From Syntrophales bacterium (lineage in GTDB: Bacteria > Desulfobacterota > Syntrophia > Syntrophales > PHBD01): DNA of 64,000 bases. Made by a program: the position numbers and the translations under genes. This document shows positions 1 through 24,479 of the stretch, piece by piece; within the stretch, counting starts at the first letter, position 1; every line of letters begins with the position of its first letter. The notes beneath the pieces were generated by a model. That model searched no databases. It had not been told where the DNA came from and saw only the letters and a list, made by a program, of their open reading frames with translations. The stretch is taken from contig OY764159.1 of assembly GCA_963668175.1 (NCBI GenBank), positions 1,676,077-1,740,076 on the forward strand, in the 5' to 3' direction.

Positions 1-273
1 CGGCAACGGACAATCCTGGCGGATAAGCCCGGGGGCCGCAACTCCCGTCCCGACCGACGGCGGGCTCCGAGTGAAGCATTTCATCCAGAACAGCGGCGGC
101 GGCAGGCGTTCCCTGATAAATAGTGGCATGATATCGGAGCCTTATAAATAATGGAGGACTGGCACGTTTCTTTCTATCTCTCATGCGAGCCCTCAAAAAG
201 CATCCGATATCCAGCAAGGCTTTAACCTATTTTCCAGTATGGAATAGATTAATTATGTTAAGGAGGAGGGAGT

Positions 274-4255: not shown

Positions 4256-4828
4256 ATGAATGCCATATCCGTCGCCGCCATCGTTTTTGCCGCCGCCCTG
4301 GTCGTCATTTTCATCCGCGGACATCGTATCCTTAAGAAACGAGAGAAGAGGCTCGAAGAGATTGCCCGGGAGGAGCAGAGGGATGTGAGAAAGCTTGCTT
4401 ACGTCGCCTACCACGGCGGTCATCCCGACCTACCGGTGCCCCAGAAGCTGACGGCGGCTCTGACGGAGGATGCCCTTGTCCTGGTAACCAACCGGGGAGA
4501 TAAGACCGTGCTTCCCATGCAAGACTGGGTCAAGTTGGAGAAGTTTACGACAAAGCGGAAGCACGATGTGAAGCAGCGGAGCATGGTCCTCTGGGGCCCT
4601 TTCAATAATGTCATGTTCAAGGATCAGATCCGGCATTTTATAGTCGTCAACTACCGCCACGGCCGGAACGAAGATCCGGACAACCATATCCTGATCGAAC
4701 TGGGAAACCCGGACGAGAGGGACAAGGTATTTGCGGAAATCGACCGGACGCTCACGCAATTCAGACGTTCCGGTCCGGTGGCGGAGCGGGGCCGGCCGGC
4801 GGAAGCGGATCTGCTGCATACGTCCTGA
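4256..4828 (+). CDS. hypothetical membrane-anchored protein
   Basis: 190 aa; single N-terminal TM helix followed by a soluble domain; no recognisable family. Confidence 0.5.
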   Translation: MNAISVAAIVFAAALVVIFIRGHRILKKREKRLEEIAREEQRDVRKLAYVAYHGGHPDLPVPQKLTAALTEDALVLVTNRGDKTVLPMQDWVKLEKFTTKRKHDVKQRSMVLWGPFNNVMFKDQIRHFIVVNYRHGRNEDPDNHILIELGNPDERDKVFAEIDRTLTQFRRSGPVAERGRPAEADLLHTS

Positions 4829-4853
4829 CCGGTGCCAGACGGGGAAAACGGGC

Positions 4854-6995
4854 GCGATGGAAGAGACGGAAAGAGAAAAAAAGCATTTTGACAAGAGATA
4901 CTTTCGCTCTCAGGAGCATTTGAAGAAAAAAGTCCGGCTCCTAGCATCCATCTATAAAATCAGCCGGCTGCTCAACCGGTCCATCACCAGGGACAAGATT
5001 CTGCTTGCCCTCGTCAAGGAGATGAAGAAAGTCTTCGATCTCCACCGCAGCATGATCTTTCTGATCAACAGGCGGGAGAATACCCTGGAGATGAAGTACG
5101 TCATCGGTTTCTCCCCGGAAGAGTCCAAGAGGGCCTTCAAATACCCCCTGGACATGGACAAACAGCAGTGCCGGGAGACGCTCGTCGCCAGGACGGGCAA
5201 GACCATCTACATCAGGAACGCCCAGAACAGCCCGATCATCACCGAATTCGACTTCAAGATGGACCGCATCTGGCGCCGGACGTCCTCCATCTCGATGCCG
5301 CTCAAAATAAAGGGGGAGATCATCGGCGTCATCCAGGGCGACCAGACGGAAAAGGAACTCGTCCTGTCGAAGAGCGACATCGACCTTTTTTCGACCTTTG
5401 CGAGCCACGCCTGCCTGATCATTGAGAACGCCCGTCTTCAGGAGCAGTACCAGAAAAAGATCGCCCAGCTCCTCTCCCTTCAGGAAATTACGAAAAAGAC
5501 GAGCTCCACACTGAACCTCCGGAAACTGCTGAATATCGTGACGGTCAATGCCCTCAAGATCACCGGCGCCGCTGTCTGCACGCTCCTGCTTGCGGAGCGG
5601 GACTATCTCCGTATCGTCTCCTGCGTCGGGCATGAGATCGATCCCGAAAAGTTCCGGTTGAAAATCGGCGAGGGAATCGCCGGCTGGGTGGCGGAGAAAG
5701 GCGTGCCCCTTCTGATCGGCGACGTGACCGAAGAGCCGCGATATATCGAAAGCATACCGGGGATCGGGTCCACCCTGGCCGTTCCCCTGGTCAGCGAGAA
5801 GAAGGCGCTCGGCGTTCTCGTCGTGGACAGCTTCAAGAAGTCGGCCTTTTCGCTCGACGACCTGGAACTCCTCATGGTCTTCGCGAGCCATACGGCGGTC
5901 GTCATCGACAGCGTCCGTCTCTACGAACAGGTGATCGCAGAGAGGAACTTTGCCTCCAACATCCTGGAAAGCTCGCCCAACGGCATCATCACGATCGACG
6001 AGAACAAGAAAATCCGGGCGCTCAACCGGAAGCTGGAGGAGATCCTCGGCATCAAGCGGAGACTCATGCTGGACAAGAAGATCTCCGAAGTCTTCAAGGA
6101 CAACGAAATCCTCGCCGTTCTGAACCAGATGATCGAAGAGCGGCAGATCGTCGAGAACCACGAAGTCACCATGACGAAGAAGGACGGCTCGACGGTCATC
6201 CTGGGGCTCAGTTCTTCCTCCATGCAAACGGACGAAAAAGGGCTGGCGGCCATGATCATCACGATCCAGGACCTGACTGATTTCAAACGCGCCGAAGCCC
6301 TTATCCGCAGGGTGGACCGCCTTTCCTCGCTGGGGCAGTTGTCGGCGGGCATTGCCCACGAGATCCGGAACCCCCTTGCCAGCATCAACTTCAACGCCCA
6401 GCTGCTCCAGAAGAAGCTCAAGTCCGATAGAAATGTCGAAAGCATCCTCAATGACACCTTCGAGGGAATCGACCGTATCAAGGTGCTGGTGCGGCGGATA
6501 CTCGACTTTACCAAGACGGGACAGCCCTCGTTCAGCAAAAGCTCCATCAACAGCGTCATTGCCGACTCCATTTCACTGATCGAACCGCAGCTTAAGAAGC
6601 GCAAGGTCGATATTAAAAGATATTTCGCCGACGGCGTTCCCGATATCCTCTGCGATCCCCACCAGATCCAGCAGGTCTTTGTCAATCTCCTGATGAATGC
6701 GATCGAATCGATCGAGGACGCAGGTACGATCGAAATCAGATCCACCGTGGAAAAAAGGCGGTCGGACGGAACGCGCGTCGTCGTCGTGCTTTCCGACGAC
6801 GGCGTGGGCATCCCCAAGGAGAACGTCGCCCGGGTGTTCGATCCGTTTTTTACCACCAAACCCGACGGGACGGGACTGGGGCTCTCGATCGTCTATAAGA
6901 TCCTGGAGCAGCACGACGCCCAGATAGAAATCAAAAGCAGGGAAAAGAAAGGGACGTCGTTCGTCCTCCGGTTTCCCGTAAAAATGCATACATGA
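4854..6995 (+). CDS. cytoplasmic sensor histidine kinase (GAF-GAF-PAS-HisKA-HATPase)
   Basis: H-box SAGIAHEIRNPL, C-terminal ATPase G-boxes (DGVGIP, GTGLGLSI); internal ATG chosen as start because the longer ORF overlaps the upstream gene. Confidence 0.85.
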   Translation, partial: AMEETEREKKHFDKRYFRSQEHLKKKVRLLASIYKISRLLNRSITRDKILLALVKEMKKVFDLHRSMIFLINRRENTLEMKYVIGFSPEESKRAFKYPLDMDKQQCRETLVARTGKTIYIRNAQNSPIITEFDFKMDRIWRRTSSISMPLKIKGEIIGVIQGDQTEKELVLSKSDIDLFSTFASHACLIIENARLQEQYQKKIAQLLSLQEITKKTSSTLNLRKLLNIVTVNALKITGAAVCTLLLAERDYLRIVSCVGHEIDPEKFRLKIGEGIAGWVAEKGVPLLIGDVTEEPRYIESIPGIGSTLAVPLVSEKKALGVLVVDSFKKSAFSLDDLELLMVFASHTAVVIDSVRLYEQVIAERNFASNILESSPNGIITIDENKKIRALNRKLEEILGIKRRLMLDKKISEVFKDNEILAVLNQMIEERQIVENHEVTMTKKDGSTVILGLSSSSMQTDEKGLAAMIITIQDLTDFKRAEALIRRVDRLSSLGQLSAGIAHEIRNPLASINFNAQLLQKKLKSDRNVESILNDTFEGIDRIKVLVRRILDFTKTGQPSFSKSSINSVIADSISLIEPQLKKRKVDIKRYFADGVPDILCDPHQIQQVFVNLLMNAIESIEDAGTIEIRSTVEKRRSDGTRVVVVLSDDGVGIPKENVARVFDPFFTTKPDGTGLGLSIVYKILEQHDAQIEIKSREKKGTSFVLRFPVKMHT

Positions 6996-7001
6996 GGGGC
7001 C

Positions 7002-8378
7002 ATGTACCGCTATAAGCTACTCATCGTCGACGACGACCGGTTGCTGCAGAATTCTCTGAACAATATCCTTTCGGAGAATTACGACGTCATGATCGCCGGC
7101 AGCGGTGAGGCCGCCCTGCAGATCCTGAAGAAACATACGGTGGATCTGATCCTGCTGGATATCAGGCTGCCCGGCATCGACGGGGTGGAGACGCTCCGCC
7201 AGATAAAAAACGGCGACAACAGTACGGGTGTGATCATGATGACGGCTTACGAGGACATCAAGACCGTGATCACCTCGATGAAGAACGGCGCCGCGGACTA
7301 TCTGGTGAAGCCCCTCGATATCGAGGAACTGGAGATCATCATCGAAAGGGCGCTGGAAAACATCCGCCTGAAGCGTGAACTGGAAGAACTCAGGAAACAG
7401 TACATCCAGGAATTCGACATCGACCAGATCGTGGCTGAGAGCCAGGGCATCAAGAACGCCCTGAAACTGGCGAACACCATTGCCCAGAGCGACGATACGA
7501 CCGCGCTGATCGAGGGCGAGACGGGAACGGGCAAGGAGGTCATAGCCCGGACGATCCACTGCAACAGCCGTCGCTTCGGGAAGCCCTTCGTTAGCATCAA
7601 CTGCGGGGCGATCAGCAAGGAACTGATCGAAAGCGAACTCTTCGGCTACGAAAAAGGGACGTTCACGGGCGGCCTGCAGGAAGGTAAGAAGGGAAAGATC
7701 GAACTGGCCGAGAGCGGGACCCTTTTCCTCGACGAGATCAGCGAACTTCTCCCGTACTCGCAGGTCAACCTGCTCAGGTTCCTGGAAGAGAGGGAGTTCT
7801 ACCGGGTCGGGGGGACGGAGAAGCGCAAGGTCGACGTGCGGATCATCGCCGCCACGAACAAGAGCCTGGAGGAAGGTATCGCGAAGGGCACCTTCCGGAA
7901 AGACCTCTATTACCGTCTGAACGTGGCCAAGATATTCCTGCCGCCGCTTCGGGACCGGAAGGCCGACGTCATCGCCCTCGTCCGCTTTTTCATGAACAAG
8001 TTCAACGAAAAGTTCGGCAAGAATTTCCGCGGGGTATCCAAAGAGGCCCAGGCGCATCTCCTCAATTATCCCTGGGTGGGCAACGTCCGGGAGCTCCGTA
8101 ATTGCGTCGAAAGGGTGATTCTCGTCGAGAACGACACGGAGATCCGGCCGGAACATCTCCTGTTCTTGAACCACCAGCTCGACACCCATCTGCCCGCCAC
8201 TTTCGAGCCGGCATGGAGCCTTCCCCCTGCGGGGATCGACCTGGACGAACTTATCAAGAAACTGATCCTGCAGGCCCTGGAGCGGGCGCACGGCAACAAA
8301 GCCCAGGCCGCCAAACTCCTCGGCATGTCCCGGCCGACTATGATCTACCGTATCGAAAAGTACGGCATCAAAATTTAG
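7002..8378 (+). CDS. sigma-54-dependent response regulator (NtrC/Fis family)
   Basis: REC domain (LIVDDD..D), AAA+ sigma-54 interaction domain (GETGTGKE, GAFTGA-like ESELFGYEKGTFTG), C-terminal Fis HTH. Confidence 0.9.
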   Translation: MYRYKLLIVDDDRLLQNSLNNILSENYDVMIAGSGEAALQILKKHTVDLILLDIRLPGIDGVETLRQIKNGDNSTGVIMMTAYEDIKTVITSMKNGAADYLVKPLDIEELEIIIERALENIRLKRELEELRKQYIQEFDIDQIVAESQGIKNALKLANTIAQSDDTTALIEGETGTGKEVIARTIHCNSRRFGKPFVSINCGAISKELIESELFGYEKGTFTGGLQEGKKGKIELAESGTLFLDEISELLPYSQVNLLRFLEEREFYRVGGTEKRKVDVRIIAATNKSLEEGIAKGTFRKDLYYRLNVAKIFLPPLRDRKADVIALVRFFMNKFNEKFGKNFRGVSKEAQAHLLNYPWVGNVRELRNCVERVILVENDTEIRPEHLLFLNHQLDTHLPATFEPAWSLPPAGIDLDELIKKLILQALERAHGNKAQAAKLLGMSRPTMIYRIEKYGIKI

Positions 8379-8585
8379 CAGGCCGCGCCCCCTGCATGGG
8401 GGCAGTTGAAAAACGCCCATCTGCAGCGTTGCGTTTCGCCCCGCGGGTGCTCACGTACCTTGTAGTACGCTCCGCTCCGCGATGCTCGCGCGCCTTGCAT
8501 ATGGACATTTTTGAACAGCCTGTTCAGAATCTCGTTTTAGCAGGCCGCGCCCCCTGCATGGGGGCAGTTGAAAAACGCCCATCTG
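8376..8585. repeat. MITE-like intergenic repeat element, copy A (about 110-bp core flanked by a perfect 49-bp direct repeat)
   Basis: TTAGCAGGCCGCGCCCCCTGCATGGGGGCAGTTGAAAAACGCCCATCTG occurs twice (8376-8424 and 8535-8583); the core shares conserved blocks, including the palindrome TTGAACAGCCTGTTCA, with the inverted copy at 56640-56812. Confidence 0.6.
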
Positions 8586-8599
8586 TCGCACTTCAATTC

Positions 8600-9853
8600 C
8601 TATCCCTGCCGACCGCGCACTTCCTTGACAAAAAGAAAGAAGACGACGGCCGCTCCGGCCATGGCCGCATCCAGCAGGAAGGCCCAATGGTAGCTTCCAA
8701 GCGTATCCCGGACGGCGCCGCCGGCCCAGTGGGAGAGGATGGCCCCCGCGCCGTACAGGGGCGTCCAGACACCGATGACGGTGCCGATCAGCGGCCGCGG
8801 AAAATAGTCGCCGGCGCAGGCGCCGTAGATAGGGAATGTTGCGCCGTAGACGATCGCCAGGGCGCCCACCAGACAGGGGAGTACAATCGTTCCCGTACCG
8901 GCGGCGACGATCAGAAAGAGGACGATGGCGAGAAATACGTTTGCACAGAGGATAGTTCGCCTCCGGCCCAGGCGGTCCGAGAGGGGCAGAATCGTGAGGA
9001 CTCCCAGAACCTGAAAGATGCCGTGAATCGTGGCGAGAAAGCTTGCCGCTCCGAGGGAGAGGCCGGCTTCGCTGCGGGCGTAATCGACCATGAAGGTCGT
9101 AAATCCGTAAAGGGCGAAGGCGACCGAGAAGTAGGAGCCGCCTATCCACCAGAAGATCGGGTTCCGGAGAACGGCCGTAAATGGTCCGGCGGAGGCCGGA
9201 CCGGATGAAGGCGGCGGGACTGCGGCACAGCCGTCCTTATCTCCCCAGGGGACCGTGCCCGAGGATTCGGGAGTGTTCCGAAGGACCGCGGCGTTGACGG
9301 CGACCAGGGCAAGGGCAGCTCCTCCCAGGGCGAGCCATGTCCAGCGCCAGTCGTAATGGGCCGCGACGAAGGGAAAGATGGCGCCGACGGCGGCAAAGCC
9401 CAGCCCGTATCCTGTGCCGAGAATACCGAGGGCGAGGCCGCGGCGACGCGGGGAAAACCACCGCTGGATCACGGCCAGGACCGGGGTCCAGATGCCTGCG
9501 GCCCCGGCTCCCGCGAGGGCATACGCCAGGCACGCCTCACCGAGGCCCGACGCTTTCGACAGGAGCAGAACACCGGAGCCCAGGACGGCAAGACAGACGG
9601 GGATGACAAGCCGGACGCCGATGCGGTCGGCGAGGAATCCGGCGACGGGTGCGAGGCAGATATACGCGCCGAGATAGGCATTGTAGATCGTGCCGCCGGC
9701 GGTGCGGGAGAGGCCCATGTCGCGGATCATCTCCGGCAGGACAACGCCGTAGCCCAGGCGGACCGAGTAATTGATGAAGATGTCCAGAAAGCCGGCGCCC
9801 AGGATGATCCAGGCCCAGTGCAGGACTCTTCCCTGAGTCGATCGGGATGGCAT
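8600..9853 (-). CDS. MFS transporter
   Basis: 12 TM helices, MFS-like loop motifs; six-frame ORF starts with TTG at 9898, first ATG at 9853; neither has a clear RBS. Confidence 0.8.
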   Translation of the reverse strand: MPSRSTQGRVLHWAWIILGAGFLDIFINYSVRLGYGVVLPEMIRDMGLSRTAGGTIYNAYLGAYICLAPVAGFLADRIGVRLVIPVCLAVLGSGVLLLSKASGLGEACLAYALAGAGAAGIWTPVLAVIQRWFSPRRRGLALGILGTGYGLGFAAVGAIFPFVAAHYDWRWTWLALGGAALALVAVNAAVLRNTPESSGTVPWGDKDGCAAVPPPSSGPASAGPFTAVLRNPIFWWIGGSYFSVAFALYGFTTFMVDYARSEAGLSLGAASFLATIHGIFQVLGVLTILPLSDRLGRRRTILCANVFLAIVLFLIVAAGTGTIVLPCLVGALAIVYGATFPIYGACAGDYFPRPLIGTVIGVWTPLYGAGAILSHWAGGAVRDTLGSYHWAFLLDAAMAGAAVVFFLFVKEVRGRQG

Positions 9854-9994
9854 GCGTTTTTGGAATGAGAGTATATGAGGTGCCGGCCGGGTTGTCAATG
9901 GGCGATATGCCGGTCGCCGTTCCTCGGCAGGAGGGGAGAGGCCTCCGGCCGAAAGGCGGCCGAAGGCGATATTTCCCCGCCCCCCGATTCGTTC

Positions 9995-10414
9995 TTACTG
10001 TTTTTTGGCCTTGTTCGGCAGCTTCATGTCGAACCTGGCGTGGCAGTCGAGACAGTAAACCTTGGACGGCGAATGCTCGTGATGGCAGACCGTGCAGGCG
10101 ATGTCCCCCAGGTGGGATTTGTGGGGGTTGCGGTCGGGAAAATCCTTCGGCGTGGAATTTTTAACGAGCTTTTCCATGGGACCGTGGCAGGCGAGGCAGC
10201 GCTGGTTCTCCACTTCCGCGTCGGCCGCGGGAACGGACTTCCCGTGGCAGTTGGCGCAGGCGATGCCGCCTTGCATATGGGGCCCCGCGGCAACCTGGGG
10301 CGCTTTGGCAGTCTTCGGCTCTTTTTTCGCCGCCATAGCGGTGAGATGGCCCGCGGCCAGGCAGATTGCGACCGCCCAAAGGGCGATCCATACGGGTGCG
10401 AATTTTCGTTTCAT
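9995..10414 (-). CDS. small tetraheme cytochrome c (periplasmic)
   Basis: four CxxCH motifs (CANCH, CLACH, CTVCH, CLDCH) in about 140 aa; signal peptide; RBS AAGGGAGA before the ATG at 10414. Confidence 0.85.
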   Translation of the reverse strand: MKRKFAPVWIALWAVAICLAAGHLTAMAAKKEPKTAKAPQVAAGPHMQGGIACANCHGKSVPAADAEVENQRCLACHGPMEKLVKNSTPKDFPDRNPHKSHLGDIACTVCHHEHSPSKVYCLDCHARFDMKLPNKAKKQ

Positions 10415-10604
10415 CGTTATCTCCCTTGTGTAAAGAAAAGGCCCGTGAATCCGGCCCATTCACGGACCCTGTATAAAACCGGACGACAGGGACGACGCCG
10501 GCGTCGGCCGGGGGTCAATTGAAGCCCGGACCGGCGCCGACGGTCCCATTCCTGTGGAGACTCCTCCCGCGGACCGCCTCCGGCCCGCAGAAGGAGCATT
10601 TCCT

Positions 10605-12215
10605 CTATTTCCAGATTTTCTCCGTGGCGGCGAACTTTCCCGCCTGGCGTCCGAAGACGATCAGGTCGCAGATGGCCGTCCCGCTGCCGGGATACCTGCC
10701 GCCGAAAACGCCGATGGCATCGCGGCCCGCCGCATAGAGGCGCGGAATGACCTCGTCGAAGGCGTTGAGCACCTGGGCCTTGGTGTTGATGTTGAGCCCG
10801 CCGTCGTGGGCGATCATGCCCACGCGGACGGTGAAGCCGTAGTAGGGAGGCGTCCTCAGGGGGGCCAGGGCTTTCTTCCTGCCGAACTGGCTGTCCTTTC
10901 CCGCTTCGGCGTCCTTGTTGTAGTAGGCGATGGTCTTCTCCACGGCCGCCGTATCGAGACCCATTTTTGTCGCCAATTCGGCGATAGTGTCGGCCTTCCA
11001 GAGGTCGCCCGCCGCGGCCTGCTTGTCGATGTTGTTGGGATTGAGACCGATGGCGATGGTCATTTCGGGTGTGATCCCCCGGGCTTTCCCCGTTTCGGCG
11101 ATCTCCAGGGCCTTCTTGACGCTGGTGGAATCCAGGATGCAGTAGGCCGTCGTCGCCTTGTTGGTGATCATCGCCTCGCAGACGAGGACGTAGTAAGTGC
11201 CTTCGTCGACGAAGCGCGTGCCGTCCTTCTTGACATAGATGTTGGGAATTCCCCAAATGTTTGCATAGACGATACTCGCCATCCGCTGGCCGGGGAACAT
11301 GGTCGAGGGCAGCGGGCAGATCGTGTTCAGGCCCTTCATGGCGCCGCCGCAGTAGATGCCGATTTTGTAACCGTCTCCCGTGGCGTTGATGTCGCCGGTG
11401 GGGATGGTGTCGGCGAGATCGGGCGAATAGTCCCGAAGCCAGGGAATGCACCCGGGGCTGGACACGATGCCGCCGGTGGCGAGCACGACGGCCTTGCGGG
11501 CCCGGACGTTGATTTCCTTGCCGCGCCTCACAACCTTGACGCCGACGACCTCGTAGCCGCCGTCCGCCTTCGACGGCCGGACGATGGGGCGCGTCACCTG
11601 GGCGCCGAGGACGGTCTTGATGTTCTTCTCGGCCTTCACGGTATTCATCATGACGTTGAACAGATCGCGGCCGCCTCCCTTCACGCGGTGCCCCCGTTTC
11701 ATGGGCGGGGTGATCGCCGTGTATTCCGGCAGAAACTCCATGCCGCTCATGGCGAGGAGTCCTACGGGAAATTCGGCCCCCATGCTCCTGATCCATTCGA
11801 TGTTCTCGTTCGACATCTCCGCCGCGAGCTTCACAAGCTCCGGTTTCGCCCCGCCCTTCCCGCAGGCCATGATATATTTGTACATGGCCTCGGGGGAGTC
11901 TGAAAGCCCCGCTTCCTTCTGTGTGCTCGTTCCCGAAGCGTAGATGATGCCGCCCGATATCTTCGTCGAGCCGCCCGGCACCTCCGATTTATCGAAGATG
12001 AGGACCGACGACCCTGCCCGCGCCGCTTCGATGGCGGCGCAGGCCCCGGCGCCCCCGTATCCGGCGACGACGACGTCGGCCTCCATGTCCCATTTCTTCG
12101 GTATCGGCGCTGCGTGCGAATCCTTCATGCCCATTCCTGCCATGGCCAGGGCACCCGTGCCGATGGCCGCTCCTTTCATGAATCCCCTGCGGGACAACTT
12201 TCCTTCTTCCGGCAT
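10605..12215 (-). CDS. Tat-exported FAD-binding flavoprotein, fumarate reductase/urocanate reductase/methacrylate reductase family
   Basis: twin-arginine signal SRRGFMKGAA; FAD dinucleotide fold VVVAGYGGAGACAA; C-terminal HDGGL...RLYAAGRD motifs of FAD_binding_2 reductases. Confidence 0.85.
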   Translation of the reverse strand: MPEEGKLSRRGFMKGAAIGTGALAMAGMGMKDSHAAPIPKKWDMEADVVVAGYGGAGACAAIEAARAGSSVLIFDKSEVPGGSTKISGGIIYASGTSTQKEAGLSDSPEAMYKYIMACGKGGAKPELVKLAAEMSNENIEWIRSMGAEFPVGLLAMSGMEFLPEYTAITPPMKRGHRVKGGGRDLFNVMMNTVKAEKNIKTVLGAQVTRPIVRPSKADGGYEVVGVKVVRRGKEINVRARKAVVLATGGIVSSPGCIPWLRDYSPDLADTIPTGDINATGDGYKIGIYCGGAMKGLNTICPLPSTMFPGQRMASIVYANIWGIPNIYVKKDGTRFVDEGTYYVLVCEAMITNKATTAYCILDSTSVKKALEIAETGKARGITPEMTIAIGLNPNNIDKQAAAGDLWKADTIAELATKMGLDTAAVEKTIAYYNKDAEAGKDSQFGRKKALAPLRTPPYYGFTVRVGMIAHDGGLNINTKAQVLNAFDEVIPRLYAAGRDAIGVFGGRYPGSGTAICDLIVFGRQAGKFAATEKIWK

Positions 12216-12393
12216 TGCCAATCTCTCCTTCCTCTCTTTTCTCTTACGTCATAAGTCGGCGGCAATATACCAGCGACATAAGGCCGCCGCGGCCTGACAC
12301 GGTCGCCTGGGCGACGGTTCAGCTTTGGGTTTTGTACGGTTAAAAGGCGGGAAAGACAATGACAAGAAATCTTACGTTGATCTTAAAAAATAT

Positions 12394-13683
12394 TTAAGAT
12401 TCGCCGTAGGACGCAAGGAAAGACCGGAGGTTCTGCGTTTTGCTGAGGCCGATCTTCTTCCGGATGTGGTGGCGGTAGACGTTGACGGCGTTTTCCGAGA
12501 CGTTCACGATTTCGGAAATCTCCTTCGTTGTTTTGCCCTCCCGGATGAGGCTTGCAACCTGAATCTCCTTATTGGTCAGGTCCAGGTGGTTCACGGTGAG
12601 CTTGTGGGCGAAGGGCGAGATGATGTCCCGCAGGTTGGATTCGACGACCTTGAGATAGGAGCGGCCCCTTTCGCCCGTCTGGTTCTGCAATTTCTCCAGG
12701 TAGGGAAGGACGAGCTGCTTGATGTTTGCGAGGATCTTGTCCTCCATCTCGCCGCGATCGCCGTCGCGCTGCTTCAGGAGGACCCTGAGGGCCGTGTTCA
12801 GATCCTGCAATTCCCCCGCCTTGATCTCCAGTTCTTTTTCCTTCCGCCTCAATTCGGTGATGTCCCGGATCGATTCGAGAGCCCCGACGACGTTGCCGTC
12901 GCTGTCGTAGAGAGGGCTGGCCTTGCACCATAGGCAGACCTTCTTCCCTTTCAGGCGGCCGACCCATTCCATGCGCAGGAGGGTTTTGTGTTCCCGGACG
13001 ACGGAAAATTCCCTTTCGCCCCTGGCGTCGGGGGCAAGCACGAAGTCGATCAGGATCGGCCGGCGGTTTCCGCAGAAGGGCACGACGTAACTGTAATTCC
13101 CCTGTCCCATCATCTCACTCGCCGGAACACCCGTCATTTCCTCGATCGCCCGGTTCCAGGCGATGACCTTCCCGTCGAGGTCGATCGCCAGTGTGGCGTC
13201 CGGGAGGAAGTCGATGACGTCCATCCAGCGATGTTCCGATTCCCGGAGGGCCACCTCCGCCTGCTTGCCGGCGGTTACATCGCGGCAGCCGACGACCAGG
13301 CCGCCGTTTCCGCCGTTTTCCCGGACGGTTTTTCCCGAACAATAGAGCCAGACATAGCGGCCGTCGGCGTGGCGGAAGCGGAAGGATTCGCCCTGCTGTC
13401 CGGTCTTGAGGGCCTCCGCGAAGGACGCCTTCATCCGTTTGCGGTCCTTTGGGTGCACGTGGTCGGTGACTTCGCGGCCGACGATATGGTCGGCATCGTA
13501 GCCGAGAATGCCTTTGATGGAGGGGGTCACGTACTGGAAAATGCCGTCCCTGTCGAGGAGGGCAACGATATCGACCATGTTGTCGAAGATGACCTTTTGC
13601 AGGGCTGCCGCCGTCGCGCCTCGATCGGCGGTTCTGCGGCACGGGGATTGAGACGGAGTTTTTTTCTGAATTTGCTTTTTCAT
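12394..13683 (-). CDS. PAS-domain sensor with C-terminal LuxR/GerE HTH (transcriptional regulator)
   Basis: two PAS-like domains plus C-terminal LTNKEIQVASLIREGKTTKEISEI...LSKTQ LuxR-type HTH. Confidence 0.8.
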   Translation of the reverse strand: MKKQIQKKTPSQSPCRRTADRGATAAALQKVIFDNMVDIVALLDRDGIFQYVTPSIKGILGYDADHIVGREVTDHVHPKDRKRMKASFAEALKTGQQGESFRFRHADGRYVWLYCSGKTVRENGGNGGLVVGCRDVTAGKQAEVALRESEHRWMDVIDFLPDATLAIDLDGKVIAWNRAIEEMTGVPASEMMGQGNYSYVVPFCGNRRPILIDFVLAPDARGEREFSVVREHKTLLRMEWVGRLKGKKVCLWCKASPLYDSDGNVVGALESIRDITELRRKEKELEIKAGELQDLNTALRVLLKQRDGDRGEMEDKILANIKQLVLPYLEKLQNQTGERGRSYLKVVESNLRDIISPFAHKLTVNHLDLTNKEIQVASLIREGKTTKEISEIVNVSENAVNVYRHHIRKKIGLSKTQNLRSFLASYGES

Positions 13684-13839
13684 GACGGCTGCATGCGGCA
13701 AAGGGGCTCTGCCCGTTTGTTATTTCAGAGGGTGGAGTATAGAAAAGCCGCCGCGCCGTGTCAACGGAATTATGGCTGCTCTGTCGGAAGGTCGCGCGGA
13801 GTGGCTGTTACGCCGGGCCGGCTGCAGCAGTTCGTGCGG

Positions 13840-14469
13840 TTAACGGACGGTGATCTCCACACGGCGGTTTCGCGGTTCGGAGACGCCGTCGGCCGTCGGG
13901 ACCAGGGGGTTTCCCTTTCCATGGTAGGTGATTTCGATGCTGTCGCGGGGGATGCCCTTCGAGAGCAGGACGTTCGCCACGGACTTCGCGCGGCGCAGGG
14001 AAAGCATCCGGTTGTAGTCGTCCGAGCCCACGCTGTCCGTATGGCCGCTGACGATGATGTCCGTCGATTTCCGGACCCTGACGGCTTCCAGGACATCCGG
14101 CAGCAGGCGGAGGGATTCGGGCGTCAGGTCGGCGCTTCCCGACTTGAACTGCATGACGAAGGTCGCCGGGGCCATGGGCTCAGCTTCCAGGGCCTGCCGG
14201 ACGGCCGTCCGGGCCTGCTGTTCGCCGATCACTTTAGGCTTCCCCTGGGCTCCGGTCAGCGCGGAGGTTTCCGTCGATTGCCAGGCCTGATCCAGCGTTT
14301 GCGATCCTTTTTTGTCGGTGACTTCGAGGCTGCCGACCTTGCCGTCGGGATTGGGGAGGAGGATGACTTGCGTCGTCGGACCGCAGGCGGCTACGATGAG
14401 GGAAGCGAGAATGGAAAAGGTTACGGCCTTCAGCGGCTTCAGGCATGATCGCGTAGTCCCCGCGGCCAT
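13840..14469 (-). CDS. OmpA-family lipoprotein
   Basis: lipoprotein signal (LIVAAC), C-terminal OmpA_C motif (SGHTDSVGSDDYNRMLSLRRAKSV...NRRVEI). Confidence 0.75.
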   Translation of the reverse strand: MAAGTTRSCLKPLKAVTFSILASLIVAACGPTTQVILLPNPDGKVGSLEVTDKKGSQTLDQAWQSTETSALTGAQGKPKVIGEQQARTAVRQALEAEPMAPATFVMQFKSGSADLTPESLRLLPDVLEAVRVRKSTDIIVSGHTDSVGSDDYNRMLSLRRAKSVANVLLSKGIPRDSIEITYHGKGNPLVPTADGVSEPRNRRVEITVR

Positions 14470-16535: not shown

Positions 16536-17049
16536 CCTGGCACCTCCCGCTGTCTTTCGCTGGGGGCACGCGTTCCGTCTTGAACCGTTCGCGCCGTGTG
16601 CCGGCCCGGAAACCGATTCCCTCCGGGGCACCGCTTTCCGTGACCGCTCCCCCCCTGCACGGTACGGCGTCCTTCCCTGTTCCTTGAGTCTTGCGATGTT
16701 ACCAGTATAAGAAGGCCGTTTGAATATGTCAAATAAAACATAATATGTCAGGAACGAACGGACGAACGGATCGCCTGTGTCGAACGCCACGGCCGGCGAA
16801 ACAGGAAAAAGCTATAATTATTGAATATATACAATATAAGACCGGAAAGGCGCGTCCGGCTTTGTGTTGCGGGAATGAACGTTCGCTCATGTAGGAACTA
16901 CAGAGCTTATAGCGATTGATCTTTTATAAAATATTCAATATAATGCCGGAAAGTGGTTTCCCGCTTGAAAACGTGCCGGTAAGGCCCGGAAGAAAGCCTT
17001 GTGCGGTTTCGGCGGGAATCCTACGCGAAATAGATCAAGGAGGTTTTGG

Positions 17050-18720
17050 ATGCGCAAGACAAGGATGTTGTTATTGGTGGGCGGTATCATGCTGGTGCTG
17101 ATATCGTCGTCCGTCGCCGCAGCCGCCGAGGCGAAGGATGCCCGGAGCGGCGCGACGTCTTTTGAAAAGCTGATGGGCTTCGGCGAAGGCCTGGCTGCCG
17201 TTTACGCCAAAGGGCAGTGGGGTTTTATCGACCTGGCGGGCAAGCGGGTCATCGAGCCCCTCTTCCATGAAGTCAGGGGATTCCGCGGAGACTATGCCGC
17301 GGCCCGCCTGGAAAAGCGATGGGGTTTCATCGACAGGAAGGGCACGTTCGTCATCAATCCCCAGTTCGACGACGCCCGGAATTTTTCCGAAGGCCTGGCC
17401 GTCGTGAAGAAAGAGAATGCCTGGGGTGTAATTAACGAAAAGGGTGCTATCGTCCTCGACTATTCCTATGAAGATCTGAAGAGTTTCAACGGCGGCCTGG
17501 CCCCGGCCAAGAGGACCGGCAAGTGGGGCTACATCGCCAAGGACGGAAGCTTCAAAATCGCCCGGACCTGGCTGGAGGCCGGCGAATTCGCCGACGGCTT
17601 CGCCCCGGTGAAGACCGTGGAAAACCAGTGGGGTTATATCGATACCAAGGGCCGGTACGTCATCGAGGCCCAGTTCGACGGCGCCGGCGGATTCTCGGGC
17701 GGGCTGGCCCCCGTGCAGGAAGAGACGAAATGGGGCTTCATCGACAGGAAGGGCAAATTCCGGATCAACCCCCAGTACGCCGGAGCCAGGCCTTTTAAAG
17801 ACGATCTGGCTGCGGTGCAGTCGGGCGGCAAGTGGGGTTACATCGACAGGAAAGGGAGGCTCGCCGTCCCCTGTAGTTTCGATGCGTCCGGCGACTTCAG
17901 CGGCGGCCGCGCCCTCGTGGAAAAAGACGGCGTCTCCTTCTACATCGACAAGAAAGGCGGGCAGATCCTCGACGTATCGGCCCGTAAGGTGGTCGCGGCG
18001 GCTCCGGTGACTCCGGCGGCTCCGGCGGCGAAAAGAAGCAGCCTGAAGGACGCGTGTGGCCAGACGCCCTGTCGCATTACCGGCCTCGGCAACGTCGCCT
18101 TCGGCGATATCCCCGTCAGCAACAGGTTAGGGAGTGCAGCGGACAACGATCTCGTGATCCTGAACCTGAGTTCTTCCGATCTCGTTGTGACCGCGAACAA
18201 CATCTTTGCCGGCATGCCGAACACGATCAAGAAAGGGCACAACTACACGTTCTATAACCAGAAGGATACGTTACAGGGTTATATAACCTTCGCGTTCGAC
18301 GATGCCGCGAACCCCGATCCGTTCATGATTTATGGGGATCACGTATCCCAGGACCCGTTTGCCTTTTTCGTGCAGGATCCCTGTCCGCAATCCTCTTTGT
18401 CCACCAGGAAGGGACTCAAGGCACCGCTGGGCAGTTCGCCTGCAGCCCCGAAAGATTCGGGAAACAGTCCCTATCAGTGGGACGGCCAGATGCACTGGGG
18501 CCGGTTCGCCACGAATGTCGCGCCGGTGGGGCAGTGTCCGGAAATGTGCACGGATTACAGGGCCTATACCGTCGTATCGCCCCGGCGGACCGTCACGATC
18601 TCTTCGACGAATTTCAAGGAAAAAACCGGCGGCACGCTTTTCCTCATCGTTGCCGATACGAATCCGGGCGACGGCGTTTCGATCTTCTCGCAGCGCATCT
18701 CGCCCGTCGTACCCAAATAG
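17050..18720 (+). CDS. secreted KWG/WG-repeat protein with unknown C-terminal domain
   Basis: signal peptide; at least 8 tandem about 40-aa repeats each containing KWGFID/KWGYI; RBS AAGGAGG. Confidence 0.7.
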   Translation: MRKTRMLLLVGGIMLVLISSSVAAAAEAKDARSGATSFEKLMGFGEGLAAVYAKGQWGFIDLAGKRVIEPLFHEVRGFRGDYAAARLEKRWGFIDRKGTFVINPQFDDARNFSEGLAVVKKENAWGVINEKGAIVLDYSYEDLKSFNGGLAPAKRTGKWGYIAKDGSFKIARTWLEAGEFADGFAPVKTVENQWGYIDTKGRYVIEAQFDGAGGFSGGLAPVQEETKWGFIDRKGKFRINPQYAGARPFKDDLAAVQSGGKWGYIDRKGRLAVPCSFDASGDFSGGRALVEKDGVSFYIDKKGGQILDVSARKVVAAAPVTPAAPAAKRSSLKDACGQTPCRITGLGNVAFGDIPVSNRLGSAADNDLVILNLSSSDLVVTANNIFAGMPNTIKKGHNYTFYNQKDTLQGYITFAFDDAANPDPFMIYGDHVSQDPFAFFVQDPCPQSSLSTRKGLKAPLGSSPAAPKDSGNSPYQWDGQMHWGRFATNVAPVGQCPEMCTDYRAYTVVSPRRTVTISSTNFKEKTGGTLFLIVADTNPGDGVSIFSQRISPVVPK

Positions 18721-20820: not shown

Positions 20821-20905
20821 CGCGGAATGCCGGCCTGCCGGCATCTTGACGCGGACAGCATTGTTCCGGATGCGTCCGGAAAAGGTTGAAAGAAAGGAAG
20901 AACGA

Positions 20906-22012
20906 ATGAAAAAAATCAAATGGCCGACCACGTTGCTTGCGCTTTTGCTGTTCTCTGTCCTGGCCGCGGCGGCGGAGGCCTGCTCCGTCGTTCGCGTTAT
21001 CGCCAAGGACGGAACCATCATCAGCGCCCGCACGATGGAATTCGGCATGGATATGAAGTACAACGCCATGGTCGTCCCGCGGGGCAAGGTTTTCGCCAGT
21101 CCCGCCCCCGGCAAGGGAACGGGGCTGAAATGGAAGACGCGCTACGGGTACGTTGCCGTCAATGCCTTGGGCGACGAGACAGTCGCCACGGACGGCATGA
21201 ACGAAGCGGGCCTGTCCATGAGCCATCTGTGGTATGAAAACGACATGGAATGGCAGACTGCGGGTTCGTCGGAAAAGGCGGAGGCCCTGGCCAACGCGAT
21301 GTTCGGCACGTGGATCCTCGGCAATTTCGCCACCGTCGACGAAGCGGCGAAGGCCCTGAAGAAGATCAAGGTCTTCAGCTACAAGGTGGCCGAGGCGGGC
21401 AACGTCTCATTCCCCGCCCACTTTATCATCAACGACGCCAAGGGCGGCTCCATCGTCATCGAGTACGACAAGGGCCAGCTCCACGTCTACGACAATCCCC
21501 TGGGGATTATGACCAACGCGCCGAACTTCCCCTGGATGGTCAACAACCTCCGCAATTACGTCGGCATGACCAACGACCAGCGCGGGGCTCAGGACTTCGG
21601 CGGCATGAAGCTTCCCGCCACTGGCCACGGCGCGGGGATGCTCGGCCTGCCGGGGGACATCACGCCCCCGAGCCGGTTCGTCCGTCTCGCCGTCCTGTCG
21701 AAGTTCGCCGATCCCCAGGAAACGGCCGAAGGGGCTTTGAACCTCGCCCAGCATCTCGTCAGCACGATCCATATCGTGAAGGGCACGATCGTGGACCGCG
21801 ACAAGGACGGCAAGATCGTCGCGAGCGAAACGACCCAGTGGTCGTCCTACCGGGACCTCACGAACCGCATCTTCTATTTCCGCACCTACGATAACTTCAA
21901 TATGCGGAAGATCGACCTGAAGCGGCTCGACTTCACCGGGCCCAAGGTCCGGCAGATCGAGATCGTCCAGGACCGGGAGGCGATTGCGGACGTCACCGAC
22001 CGTCTGAAATAA
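20906..22012 (+). CDS. choloylglycine hydrolase / penicillin V acylase family Ntn-hydrolase (secreted)
   Basis: signal peptide ending AEA followed by nucleophile Cys (CSVVRV...ARTMEF); GLPGDITPPSRF matches PVA motif GLPGDFTPSARF. Confidence 0.85.
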   Translation: MKKIKWPTTLLALLLFSVLAAAAEACSVVRVIAKDGTIISARTMEFGMDMKYNAMVVPRGKVFASPAPGKGTGLKWKTRYGYVAVNALGDETVATDGMNEAGLSMSHLWYENDMEWQTAGSSEKAEALANAMFGTWILGNFATVDEAAKALKKIKVFSYKVAEAGNVSFPAHFIINDAKGGSIVIEYDKGQLHVYDNPLGIMTNAPNFPWMVNNLRNYVGMTNDQRGAQDFGGMKLPATGHGAGMLGLPGDITPPSRFVRLAVLSKFADPQETAEGALNLAQHLVSTIHIVKGTIVDRDKDGKIVASETTQWSSYRDLTNRIFYFRTYDNFNMRKIDLKRLDFTGPKVRQIEIVQDREAIADVTDRLK

Positions 22013-22311: not shown

Positions 22312-23523
22312 ATGAAACAGGGATACCGCACCACGGCCGTCGTCTGGATCGTTGCCCTGTCCCTTCTTGTGCCGATGCCCGTGCTCGCCCAACAACCGCC
22401 GGAAGATGCTGCGGCGCAAAAGTCCCACGTCTATTCCCAGGAAGAACTCGACCGGCTCCTCGCGCCTATCGCGCTCTATCCCGATACGCTGCTTTCGCAG
22501 ATTCTCATGGCGGCCACGTATCCCCTGGAGGTGGTCGAGGCCGACCGCTGGCTCAAGCAGAACAAGGGCCTGGGCGTCGACGCCCTCGATGCGGCCATGA
22601 TGTCGAAACCCTGGGACGTGAGCGTGAAGTCGCTGTGCCACTATCCGCAGGTGCTCGCCATGATGAGCGACAAGCTGGAACTGACGAACGACCTGGGCAA
22701 CGCCTTCCTCAATCAGCAGGAACAGGTGATGAATACCGTTCAGGATCTCCGCGCCAAGGCGCAGTCCCGCGGCAATCTCACGGCGACCGAGAAGCAGAAG
22801 GTCGCCTCCGAGGACGGGGCCATTACCATCGTCCCGGCAACCCCCGAGGTCGTCTACGTGCCGGCCTACGATCCCTGCTGGGTTTACGGGCCATGGTGGT
22901 ATCCCTCCTGCACGCCGTGGTGGTTCTGGTATCCGGGGATCGTGGTCGGCGCCGGGTTCTTCTTCGGTCCGCCCTGCTTTGTCGGCCCCCTCGATTTCTG
23001 GTGCGGTTTCCGCTGGCGGCGTCACGAAATATTCGTCAGTGTCAACAAGACGTTTGTCGTCCACAACCCTTCCTTCACCAGGATGCACGGCGGTACGGAG
23101 GTCTGGGTACACGATCCCGCGCACCGGCGCGGCGTGGCCTATACCCGGCCGGAAACCGCCCGCCGCTTTGGTCAGATGGTCCGTCCGGGTGTGGACGCCC
23201 GCCGGTCGTTCCGGGGATTCGCACCGGAAGGCATCCGGCCGGGGACACCCGCGGGTTCCGCGGCGCGGCCGTTTTCGCCGTCGCCGGGGATAGGAAAACC
23301 AGGCAGGCCGTTTTCGCAGCCGCAGGGTGTCTCTCCGGCTTTCAGGCCGTCTTCGCCGCAGGCCGGGCACGCTTTTGAGGGTTTCGGAGCGAGCCACGGG
23401 GAAGTCGTGCAGCACAGCGAGCGCGGGCACAGCAGTGTGGGAAGCAGCGGCGGCGGCCGCGTCGGGGGAGGCAGTATCGGCGGCCACGTCGGCGGCGGTC
23501 ACGTGGGGGGAGGCAGGCGATGA
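22312..23523 (+). CDS. DUF3300-family secreted protein
   Basis: signal peptide, conserved LLAPIALYPDTLLSQILMAATYP block, Gly/Arg-rich C-terminus. Confidence 0.7.
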   Translation: MKQGYRTTAVVWIVALSLLVPMPVLAQQPPEDAAAQKSHVYSQEELDRLLAPIALYPDTLLSQILMAATYPLEVVEADRWLKQNKGLGVDALDAAMMSKPWDVSVKSLCHYPQVLAMMSDKLELTNDLGNAFLNQQEQVMNTVQDLRAKAQSRGNLTATEKQKVASEDGAITIVPATPEVVYVPAYDPCWVYGPWWYPSCTPWWFWYPGIVVGAGFFFGPPCFVGPLDFWCGFRWRRHEIFVSVNKTFVVHNPSFTRMHGGTEVWVHDPAHRRGVAYTRPETARRFGQMVRPGVDARRSFRGFAPEGIRPGTPAGSAARPFSPSPGIGKPGRPFSQPQGVSPAFRPSSPQAGHAFEGFGASHGEVVQHSERGHSSVGSSGGGRVGGGSIGGHVGGGHVGGGRR

Positions 23524-23549
23524 CAGGGATATCGGGCAAAAGAAGGCCG

Positions 23550-24479
23550 ATGGCATTCGCTAGGCTGCTTTGCTGTGCGGCGGTTGCAGTCATGGCGATC
23601 CACGCAGCCCCGGGTGAAGGCCTGGCTGCGAAGGCCAGACAGCTCGCGTTCGACTCGCCCGAAGCGGCCTTCAATGCGATGATGCAGGCCATTCGGACCG
23701 GCGACGGCGGGCAGCTTAAGGCCCTGTTCGGCCCGGCCGGTAAAGACATCTTTCCCGCCGACCCGGAGGGGAGCGCCGCCCTGAGGAAGAAATTCGCCGC
23801 GGCCTACGACGAAAAATTCCGCCTGGAACGCCGGGGCGAGGACAAGGCGGTCCTGCACGTGGGCGACAACGACTGGCCCTGGCCCGTTCCCCTGGTCAAA
23901 GCCGGCAAACGCTGGCGGTTCGATACGGCGGAGGGCATCCGGGAAATCGTTGCGCGCCGGATCGGCAGGAACGAAATCTCCGCCATCCAGGTCTGCCTCG
24001 CCTATGTGGACGCGCAGCGGGAATACGCCGCAGAGCATCGCACCGGGGATATCGGCGAATATTCGCAGAAGCTCGCAAGCGACCCGGGCCTCAAGAACGG
24101 GCTCTGCTGGGAAACCAGGGAAGGGGAGAGGCCGAGCTTTCTCGGGCCGCTGCTCGTCGGGGCCTGCAAGACCGAAGCGACGGGAACGACCCCGCTTGTG
24201 ACGTCCTTCGCCCCCTATCACGGTTACTATTACAGGATCCTCAAGCGTCAAGGCCGGGCGGCGCCCGGAGGCGCCTACGGCTACGTCGTGGACGGGAAGA
24301 TGATCGGCGGATTTGCCCTCGTCGCGTATCCGGCCGTGTACGGCGCTTCGGGAATCATGACGTTCATCGTCGATAAGGACGGCGTCGTCTACCAGAAAGA
24401 CCTGGGCCGCTACACGGAGAAGCTTGCCGAGTCGATGGAGAGCTACAATCCCGACGCCACCTGGAAAAAAGTGGATTGA
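23550..24479 (+). CDS. DUF2950-family secreted protein
   Basis: signal peptide; typical partner of DUF3300; FALVAYPAVYGASGIMTFIV block. Confidence 0.65.
   Translation: MAFARLLCCAAVAVMAIHAAPGEGLAAKARQLAFDSPEAAFNAMMQAIRTGDGGQLKALFGPAGKDIFPADPEGSAALRKKFAAAYDEKFRLERRGEDKAVLHVGDNDWPWPVPLVKAGKRWRFDTAEGIREIVARRIGRNEISAIQVCLAYVDAQREYAAEHRTGDIGEYSQKLASDPGLKNGLCWETREGERPSFLGPLLVGACKTEATGTTPLVTSFAPYHGYYYRILKRQGRAAPGGAYGYVVDGKMIGGFALVAYPAVYGASGIMTFIVDKDGVVYQKDLGRYTEKLAESMESYNPDATWKKVD

Follow-up and report, generated by a model that had tools for sequence, protein, structure and literature searches.

The acrylate reductase ArdAB of Shewanella woodyi consists of a flavoprotein with a twin-arginine translocation (Tat) signal and a separate Sec-exported tetrahaem cytochrome, and is active only when both genes are expressed (Bertsova et al., bioRxiv 10.1101/2024.02.11.579808). 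In its flavoprotein, ArdA, the proton-transfer Arg is kept, as are the ligands of the C4-carboxylate of fumarate (same study). The cgr locus of Eggerthella lenta, which encodes a cardiac glycoside reductase, combines the PF14537 cytochrome Cgr1, the Tat flavoprotein Cgr2 and a LuxR-type regulator in one cluster, for which a split architecture has been proposed. Wolinella succinogenes and Geobacter sulfurreducens AM-1 have periplasmic methacrylate reductases, presumably with the same split arrangement as ArdAB. Among the cinnamate reductases of gut bacteria, three of four clades lack both active-site Arg and carry a conserved Tyr at the last position; these enzymes are active, and clade-specific residues are required (Little et al., bioRxiv 10.1101/2022.12.26.521950). 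Here we describe a locus that resembles these systems, located on the minus strand at positions 8600-13701 of a 64-kb stretch of a Syntrophales bacterium genome (contig OY764159.1; this whole stretch is hereinafter referred to as the window, and coordinates are given in its numbering). Four genes encoding a regulator, a flavoprotein, a cytochrome and a major facilitator superfamily (MFS) transporter were arranged head to tail in this order (Table 1).

Both the flavoprotein and the cytochrome best matched the corresponding domain of Shewanella flavocytochromes c3 (Fcc3/FccA and Ifc3; 1qjd, 1d4c, 1qo8), and the two genes were therefore regarded as the two halves of a flavocytochrome c, which is fused in Shewanella Fcc3 but split here. 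The flavoprotein, about 29-30% identical to these proteins (E around 1e-48), was assigned to Pfam FAD_binding_2 (E 5.6e-49), and its PDB matches included Fcc3 (8e-49), Delta4-(5alpha)-ketosteroid dehydrogenase (KSTD; 1.9e-43) and the urocanate reductase UrdA (2.3e-35). The cytochrome contained four CxxCH motifs (CANCH, CLACH, CTVCH, CLDCH) and five further His, was assigned to Cytochrom_c3_2 (E 2.9e-21), and showed its best PDB match to the haem domain of Ifc3 (1.9e-13, residues 14-88 of 1qo8), followed by FccA (4.6e-12) and the small tetrahaem cytochrome CctA. It was the sole multihaem open reading frame (ORF) in the window. A Tat flavoprotein of the fumarate-reductase fold with a separate four-haem cytochrome had already been proposed in the first-pass annotation of this stretch, and this holds, including the haem number; the arrangement is that of ArdAB and not of the fused Fcc3.

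Both subunits carried export signals. The N-terminus of the flavoprotein (LSRRGFMKGAAIGTGALAMAGMGMKDSHA-AP) comprised the motif LSRRGFMKG, a hydrophobic stretch and then SHA-AP; R11, R12 and F14 of the twin-arginine motif were invariant in 35 homologues, and residues 1-34 were the sole disordered part (predicted local distance difference test score, pLDDT, <50) of an AlphaFold2 model with an overall pLDDT of 87.4. These features indicate a twin-arginine signal, and the flavoprotein is predicted to face the periplasm. Its ORF opens at TTG (12221), and the third codon, the ATG at 12215, is preceded by AGGAG and is probably the start. The family and signal given in the first-pass annotation agree with this, whereas the length of 537 aa given there counts the stop codon. 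The cytochrome starts at an ATG behind GGGAG, and its basic and hydrophobic N-terminus (MKRKFAPVWIALWAVAICLAAGHLTAMA-AK) shows a Sec-type signal or anchor, so that this subunit is likewise predicted to face the periplasm.

The best-matching proteins did not define the function of the flavoprotein. Fcc3 (1qjd), UrdA (6t86), KSTD and cyclohexanone dehydrogenase (CDH) were all retrieved by Foldseek with the AlphaFold2 model at probability 1.0 and TM scores of 0.67-0.76; because they score alike, the fold search was set aside as an arbiter between reductase and dehydrogenase. None of the four proteins of the locus reached the cut-off of an NCBIfam equivalog, and the flavoprotein remained under the cut-off of every NCBIfam model, including TIGR01813 flavo_cyto_c (237.4 vs 285.45 bits), PRK06481 (194.7 vs 542) and the KSTD-type models PRK12844 (198.9 vs 789) and PRK07843 (142 vs 788). 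An exact look-up of the flavoprotein sequence returned no identical record.

The active site was compared in an alignment of Fcc3 residues 126-565 and 4at0 (KSTD) chain residues 27-508, rebuilt from HMMER outputs, with 115 homologues; conservation was counted over the 42 sequences of the clade to which the flavoprotein belongs, and residues are numbered according to the 538-aa translation from TTG 12221. None of the three residues of the Arg/Arg/His triad that defines fumarate, urocanate and acrylate reductases was retained: Fcc3 Arg402, the acid catalyst (UrdA Arg411), corresponds to Tyr344 (41 of 42 clade sequences), Arg544 (UrdA Arg560) to Tyr510 (42 of 42), and His504 (UrdA His520) to Ile470, a position occupied by Val or Ile in the clade. 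In addition, Fcc3 His365 is replaced by Leu304 (39 of 42) and Thr506 by His472 (42 of 42). The proton-pathway residue Arg381 corresponds to Trp323 (42 of 42), a second alignment giving Ala320. Met236 and Met375 are retained as Met158 and Met314, while the Glu378 position is gapped or variably aligned. As the carboxylate-binding triad is absent, the substrate is not expected to be fumarate, urocanate or acrylate, and the likeness to fumarate, urocanate and methacrylate reductases drawn in the first-pass annotation is not reflected in the active site (His365 to Leu, Arg402 to Tyr, His504 to Ile/Val, Arg544 to Tyr). The same annotation had regarded the loss of the substrate-binding Arg/His residues as evidence against its proposal. 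They are indeed lost; however, this does not speak against a reductase as such, because active enoate reductases without both Arg exist (Little et al.). According to this alignment, the name "fumarate reductase flavoprotein" given to members of the clade is wrong or at least unfounded.

The clade showed its own invariant signature, L304-W323-Y344-H472-R509-Y510-S513-G514. All 13 clade loci shared the ten-position pattern L-W-[Y/N/G]-Y-[V/I]-H-R-Y-S-G, which was lacking in the other relatives compared (about 70). Two of its residues, His472 and Arg509, are confined to the clade, more distant relatives having Thr at 472 and Glu, Gly or Ser at 509. Judging from the alignment, the other pocket positions are mostly hydrophobic or aromatic (Leu304, Met158, Met314, Trp323, Ile470). 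The Tyr...Tyr-x3-Gly motif is common to ketosteroid and cyclohexanone dehydrogenases and to the Tyr-type flavin reductases of gut bacteria. Tyr510 and Gly514 correspond to Tyr570 and Gly574 of CDH, which hydrogen-bond the substrate carbonyl, and in 4at0 the residues aligned to Tyr510 and Ser513 are Tyr466 and Ser468 (chain residues 486 and 488; numbering checked against the SEQRES offset). Tyr466 of 4at0 presumably also hydrogen-bonds the substrate carbonyl, a role supported here by the numbering match only. The catalytic base Tyr319 of 4at0 was placed by MAFFT in column 343 (Tyr here, Tyr/Asn/Gly in the clade) and by HMMER transitivity in the invariant column 344, i.e., it is ambiguous by one residue. 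Tyr at both the Arg544/Arg560 column (Tyr510) and the Arg402/Arg411 column (Tyr344) fits the Tyr-type enzymes, which have no Arg at AP4 and AP6 and Tyr at AP6; these positions of Little et al. were mapped to the present columns by inference from residue order.

The locus thus shares features with several described systems and is congruent with none of them. As in ArdAB, a Tat FAD_binding_2 flavoprotein and a Sec tetrahaem cytochrome, both homologous to Fcc3 domains, are encoded side by side with a regulator next door; unlike in ArdAB, Tyr344, Tyr510 and Ile470 occupy the ligand and catalytic positions, no lyase (dddY-like) partner gene is present here, and the host is a syntrophic member of Desulfobacterota instead of a facultative gammaproteobacterium. 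His365, Arg381, Arg402, His504 and Arg544 of Shewanella Fcc3 are all replaced. The Tyr-type gut reductases (clades 2-4; CirA, CirC, CrdD) are likewise secreted FAD_binding_2 proteins without the active-site Arg pair and with Tyr at the last position. They also have neighbouring regulators and clade-specific pocket residues, and the Sutterella relatives retrieved here have an adjacent four-haem cytochrome. However, identity to the Sutterella and Eggerthellaceae loci is at most about 31%, the pocket pattern differs (LW.Y.HRYSG here vs, e.g., PL[LM]DLTIYGA), and the present clade occurs in environmental or endosymbiotic syntrophs instead of the gut. KSTD (4at0) and CDH (8am3) have the same fold with about 20-30% identity and the Tyr-x3-Gly carbonyl-activating element, but they are dehydrogenases without a cytochrome partner, and the clade Tyr lies in the Arg402 column whereas the 4at0-like Tyr lies one column earlier. 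The cgr locus is similar in its PF14537 cytochrome, its Tat FAD_binding_2 reductase with a divergent active site and its LuxR-type regulator; Cgr2, in contrast, needs a [4Fe-4S] cluster, for which no conserved Cys cluster was seen on inspection of the flavoprotein sequence (conserved Cys are isolated: C120, C291, C361), and the Cgr1 model gave 25.6 bits against a cut-off of 340. Further, most LuxR-type regulators that accompany reductases in E. lenta have transmembrane segments (Little et al., bioRxiv 10.1101/2022.12.26.521950), whereas the regulator here is a soluble PAS protein.

Homologues with at least 52% identity to the flavoprotein formed a compact group of about 46 clusters, after which identity dropped to about 40%. 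Named members of this clade, from Syntrophia, Syntrophorhabdia and Desulfomonilia, were metagenome-assembled genomes (MAGs) of Syntrophus, Syntrophaceae, Smithella/Smithellaceae, Syntrophorhabdaceae and Desulfomonilia. Close members (59-61% identity) were found in three of 185,579 species-representative genomes, all others showing at most 38%. The architecture is thus of a known kind, a periplasmic split flavocytochrome c, and the flavoprotein belongs to a syntroph-restricted clade whose predicted active site excludes fumarate, urocanate and acrylate.

The gene neighbourhood was compared in ten distinct clade contexts (the window and the loci L001, L002, L003, L005, L083, L085, L087, L089 and L091). 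A homologous cytochrome with four, six or seven haems was encoded 3' of the flavoprotein in six of them (window, L001, L002, L005, L089, L091). An orthologous PAS-PAS-LuxR regulator was found 5' of the flavoprotein in five, and one further context had a PAS histidine kinase and a LuxR-type response regulator. A homologue of the MFS transporter was present in three contexts. The closest locus, the JGI metagenome contig L091, had the same gene order as the window (aldehyde dehydrogenase, FecR, OmpA, regulator, flavoprotein, cytochrome, sigma-54 response regulator, histidine kinase) except for the MFS gene; it was collinear with 87-90% nucleotide identity, and its flavoprotein was 96% identical at the amino acid and 90% at the nucleotide level. 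Flanking gene order was also shared with the MAG of Candidatus Syntrophus pelomyxae (L002; 73-83% nucleotide identity). These similarities assign the window to a Syntrophus-like bacterium.

Related genes occurred in other bacteria. On the L001 contig (a MAG contig of 589,544 bases), positions 10001-14110 contained two tandem flavoprotein paralogues, which share 70% and 63-64% identity with the window flavoprotein. The next gene encodes a 244-aa cytochrome with seven haems, the C-terminal four of which correspond to those of the cytochrome described here; further downstream are genes for an acyl-CoA ligase and an acyl-CoA dehydrogenase of 602 aa. Other pairs of a Tat-motif flavoprotein and a four- or six-haem cytochrome were found in L011, L031, L036, L037 and L080 (MAGs of Syntrophaceae, Syntrophales, delta-proteobacteria and unclassified Pseudomonadota), with different pocket signatures (DYYYVCVYSG, PVVELTIYGA, RG[VI]TPTVYGG). 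Several different flavin reductases of the periplasm may be present among Syntrophales.

The regulator, predicted to be cytoplasmic, contained two PAS stretches (PAS, E 4.5e-28; PAS_4, E 1.2e-25) and a C-terminal GerE domain (E 3.5e-12), and no transmembrane segment was seen in it by inspection. In L001, L002 and L003 (E 1e-134 to 1e-149), and also in L091, the gene immediately 5' of the flavoprotein encodes an orthologue. Directly 3' of the regulator stop codon lies an AT-rich block with a direct repeat, TAAGAT-N5-TAAGAT, at 12385-12380 and 12374-12369. Of the first 61 columns of the spacer, 31 were invariant in five loci (window, L091, L002, L001, L003) whose proteins are 61-96% identical, while the remainder of the spacer was unconserved. 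This conservation of a block of about 60 nt within an otherwise unconserved spacer supports a functional regulator-enzyme pair, and the block is plausibly the operator/promoter of the flavoprotein gene. The link between the regulator and the enzyme, suggested in the first-pass annotation from their adjacency, was hence supported. Light sensing of the LOV (light-oxygen-voltage) type, as in the PAS-HTH protein EL222, was considered and rejected, as inspection revealed no NCRFLQ-type motif and the PDB matches were to generic PAS domains.

Enzymes of this superfamily act on a C=C/CH-CH pair activated by a carbonyl group: a hydride moves between flavin N5 and the beta-carbon, and a proton is transferred at the alpha-carbon. 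We lean, with modest confidence, towards a two-subunit periplasmic flavocytochrome c that acts as an ene-reductase and serves as an organic electron sink, the acceptor being other than fumarate. In such a system, electrons from the (methyl)menaquinone pool, or from a periplasmic formate dehydrogenase or hydrogenase, would pass through the four haems to FAD, and N5 of the reduced FAD would donate a hydride to an alpha,beta-unsaturated carbonyl compound at its beta-carbon. The hydroxyl group of Tyr510 and the amide of Gly514 would polarise the carbonyl oxygen, and Tyr344, at the place of the Fcc3 acid catalyst Arg402, would protonate the alpha-carbon. The hydrophobic pocket, the clade-specific His and Arg and the organic-anion MFS gene in two members suggest that the substrate may be a mono-carboxylate or a like carbonyl compound with a hydrophobic remainder, e.g., a cinnamate-type, medium-chain or alicyclic 2-enoate. 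A syntroph could in this way shed the electrons of acyl-CoA oxidation independently of any partner. In members that have it, the MFS transporter would import the reduced product or the inducer, and it would be optional.

Several features favour the reductive direction: the exported enzyme has a low-potential multihaem cytochrome as its partner, an adjacent cytochrome accompanies the reductase-like and not the KSTD-like relatives, and acyl-CoA oxidation in syntrophs yields electrons at the menaquinol level, for which an outlet is difficult to find. Among the relatives retrieved, adjacent cytochromes were confined to reductase-like groups of Sutterella and relatives and of Syntrophales, the Syntrophales groups also having Tat motifs. 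Other observations weigh against the proposed reductase. The cytochrome gene is missing beside the flavoprotein in four clade members (L003, L083, L085, L087), and no quinol dehydrogenase of the CymA/NapC/NrfH type or other multihaem gene was found in the window. Moreover, the Tyr/Tyr-x3-Gly constellation is equally that of KSTD and CDH, so that the chemistry alone leaves the direction unfixed; the pocket geometry is drawn from alignments alone, and the pairing of Tyr343 or Tyr344 with 4at0 Tyr319 is ambiguous.

These points bear on the opposite direction, in which a periplasmic alpha,beta-desaturase resembling KSTD and CDH would oxidise a saturated ketone or acid, with the cytochrome c as electron acceptor. 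Both 4at0 and CDH share the Tyr...Tyr-x3-Gly(Ser) constellation, PDB E-values and Foldseek scores to these dehydrogenases match those to reductases, and several KSTD-type NCBIfam models scored 140-200 bits, although none of them reached its cut-off. However, the KSTD-like relatives (W/S/T-YG/H...YSG) lacked a Tat motif in 39 of 41 cases (strict regular expression) and in no case had a neighbouring cytochrome, whereas both are present here. In addition, the hosts are syntrophs, and in the closest named relative its authors found no high-potential acceptor system, so that nothing would re-oxidise a c-type cytochrome reduced at about 0 mV. A desaturase is therefore considered rather unlikely.

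The loss of the carboxylate-binding Arg could also point to a reductase of non-carboxylate substrates (e.g., an unsaturated lactone, an enone or a vinyl-aromatic compound, comparable to Cgr2 or the vinylphenol reductase VprA), serving detoxification or co-metabolism and not organic-acid respiration. The cgr locus has a comparable layout, with a LuxR-type regulator, a PF14537 cytochrome and a Tat flavoprotein, and weak NCBIfam matches to VprA (167 bits) for the flavoprotein and to Cgr1 for the cytochrome agree with this possibility, but both scores lie far under the cut-offs. The clade-invariant Arg509 and His472 adjoin the active-site positions, the organic-anion-type MFS gene in two members favours an anionic substrate or product, and no conserved Cys cluster for a Cgr2-type [4Fe-4S] centre was seen on inspection; this alternative thus appears improbable. 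Least probable is a canonical 2-enoate reductase for fumarate, urocanate, acrylate or methacrylate (Fcc3/UrdA/ArdA/Mcr type), since its best-match relation to Fcc3 for both subunits, the annotation of the closest named homologue as "fumarate reductase flavoprotein subunit" and the ArdAB-like split architecture are set against the replacement across the clade of the Arg/Arg/His triad, of the C1-carboxylate ligand His365 and of Arg381, the variably aligned Glu378, the sub-threshold scores of TIGR01813 and PRK06481, and the C4-carboxylate ligands, which are kept in ArdA and not in the window flavoprotein.

Syntrophic fatty- and aromatic-acid oxidisers are usually said to need an H2- or formate-consuming partner, as they lack electron acceptors. 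In Ca. Syntrophus pelomyxae, an endosymbiont of an amoeba, the electrons of beta-oxidation are passed via the electron-transfer flavoprotein (ETF) to methylmenaquinone, and enzymes that would use fumarate, oxygen, sulfate or the like as acceptors were not found by its authors (PMC10579272). The genome of this bacterium carries the same locus, with the flavoprotein annotated as "fumarate reductase". A more far-reaching proposal, which we regard as possible but put forward tentatively, is that the clade provides an unrecognised respiratory or dismutation option to "obligate" syntrophs including Ca. Syntrophus pelomyxae: a periplasmic ene-reductase with its own catalytic constellation (Tyr344, His472, Arg509-Tyr510) would use a hydrophobic unsaturated acid as a new acceptor, and electrons passed from ETF to methylmenaquinone could be shed without a methanogen. 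The locus is of interest because these organisms are said to have no electron acceptor, and it may point to an organic one that has been overlooked. If the reductase works in the periplasm as proposed, an organic electron acceptor would alter the enrichment, cultivation and modelling of these syntrophs, and the clade would add an active-site type to the growing catalogue of flavin ene-reductases.

Expression data are available for genes with the same product name. In Supplementary file 5 of PMC10579272, the "fumarate reductase flavoprotein subunit" genes CSYNP_02391 (1575 nt) and CSYNP_02457 (1563 nt) have values of about 1870 and 1270, respectively, and rank beside ribosomal and ATP-synthase genes. 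Among the transcriptome entries listed there, three genes are named "fumarate reductase flavoprotein", and none of them was matched to the 1614-nt orthologue of the window gene.

The MFS transporter was assigned to MFS_1 (E 3.8e-50). Its best NCBIfam matches, all under cut-off, were the SfMCT L-lactate transporter (125 bits) and the D-galactonate and oxalate/formate families, and its best PDB matches were SfMCT (6g9x), SLC37A4 and DgoT. It was 70% identical to the orthologue in L002, with similarity beginning at MPSRSTQGRV, which indicates the ATG at 9853 as the conserved start. The first-pass annotation had placed this gene directly downstream on the same strand, which is correct, and had taken it as an integral part of the system. 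The latter does not hold: in L091 the gene is absent, window positions 8372-9977 being replaced by 174 nt (L091 8281-8454), so that the transporter is regarded as accessory and dispensable. Since Ca. Syntrophus pelomyxae, although more distant, has the gene, a loss on the branch leading to L091 is probable. Further, import of the substrate would not be needed by a periplasmic enzyme. The spacer that separates the MFS gene from the sigma-54 response-regulator gene contains two identical 50-nt direct repeats, TTTAGCAGGCCGCGCCCCCTGCATGGGGGCAGTTGAAAAACGCCCATCTG, at 8374-8423 and 8536-8585 (plus strand), 162 nt apart; the first copy overlaps the response-regulator stop codon. Further copies were found neither elsewhere in the window nor in L091. 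The repeat resembles a small repeated element or a local duplication tied to the MFS indel.

Co-transcription of all four genes as an operon, as stated in the first-pass annotation, was not established. The spacers between them measure about 172, 190 and 140 nt. For the one that separates flavoprotein and cytochrome, an unusually stable fold with three long hairpins was predicted (-106.6 kcal/mol; z = -5.9 vs 200 shuffles), the last of which (10470-10438) is terminator-like, with a 13-bp stem and a U-rich tail. The stems of this hairpin are kept in L091 while the loop is changed, and the spacer is shorter in L002; a partial terminator or an mRNA-stabilising element are candidate roles. In addition, the pattern TTGACA-17 nt-TATACT, which matches the sigma-70 consensus at 11 of 12 positions, occurs twice on the minus strand, upstream of the regulator (13764-13736) and upstream of the conserved MFS start (9898-9870). 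The presence of this near-consensus pattern before both genes suggests separate transcription units.

Table 1. Features of the flavocytochrome locus in the window, in the order of transcription.
Feature	Position	Strand	Basis or length
PAS-PAS-LuxR (GerE) transcription regulator	12394..13701	-	435-aa ORF from TTG; 429 aa from ATG 13683
Conserved AT-rich block, plausible operator/promoter of the flavoprotein gene	12332..12393	-	five-locus alignment
Tat-signal FAD flavoprotein, predicted catalytic subunit	10605..12215 (ORF to 12221)	-	536 aa from ATG 12215
Structured 190-nt spacer between flavoprotein and cytochrome genes	10415..10604	-	RNA fold, terminator-like hairpin
Tetrahaem c-type cytochrome, predicted electron-donor subunit	9995..10414 (ORF to 10459)	-	139 aa from ATG 10414
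MFS transporter, organic-anion type, accessory gene	8600..9853 (ORF open from TTG 9898)	-	417 aa from ATG 9853

The genes of a sigma-54 histidine kinase (4731-6995) and response regulator (7002-8378) are convergent to the locus and adjoin the MFS gene. The first-pass annotation had noted this pair and, in addition, neighbouring beta-oxidation genes, of which one, an acyl-CoA dehydrogenase (1762-2901), was the only one verified in the flank. A motif scan of the window found no sigma-54 promoter (TGGCAC-N5-TTGC) near the flavoprotein gene, and the number of matches in the window was that expected by chance; control of the flavocytochrome genes by the neighbouring pair was rejected on these grounds. 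One sigma-54-like match with one mismatch, TGGCACGTTTCTTTC, lies at 160-174 (plus strand), upstream of a second MFS gene (274-1593) and the acyl-CoA dehydrogenase gene. This site is more likely to be the target of the sigma-54 pair than the flavocytochrome genes are, with the reservation that such matches occur at chance number.

Other genes lie on the plus strand at 3-10 kb from the locus, encoding a secreted WG-repeat protein with six repeats (16999-18720), a member of the choloylglycine-hydrolase family (linear amide C-N hydrolase; 20846-22012) and a DUF2950 protein (23520-24479), and no link between them and the flavocytochrome genes was found. A connection to bile acids through the choloylglycine-hydrolase-family gene was rejected, since that gene is 9 kb away and the match of a bile-salt MFS model was weak (44.8 bits). 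The sole Rfam match in the window was an FMN riboswitch (RF00050; 40243-40392, minus strand; 108.9 bits, E 2e-24).

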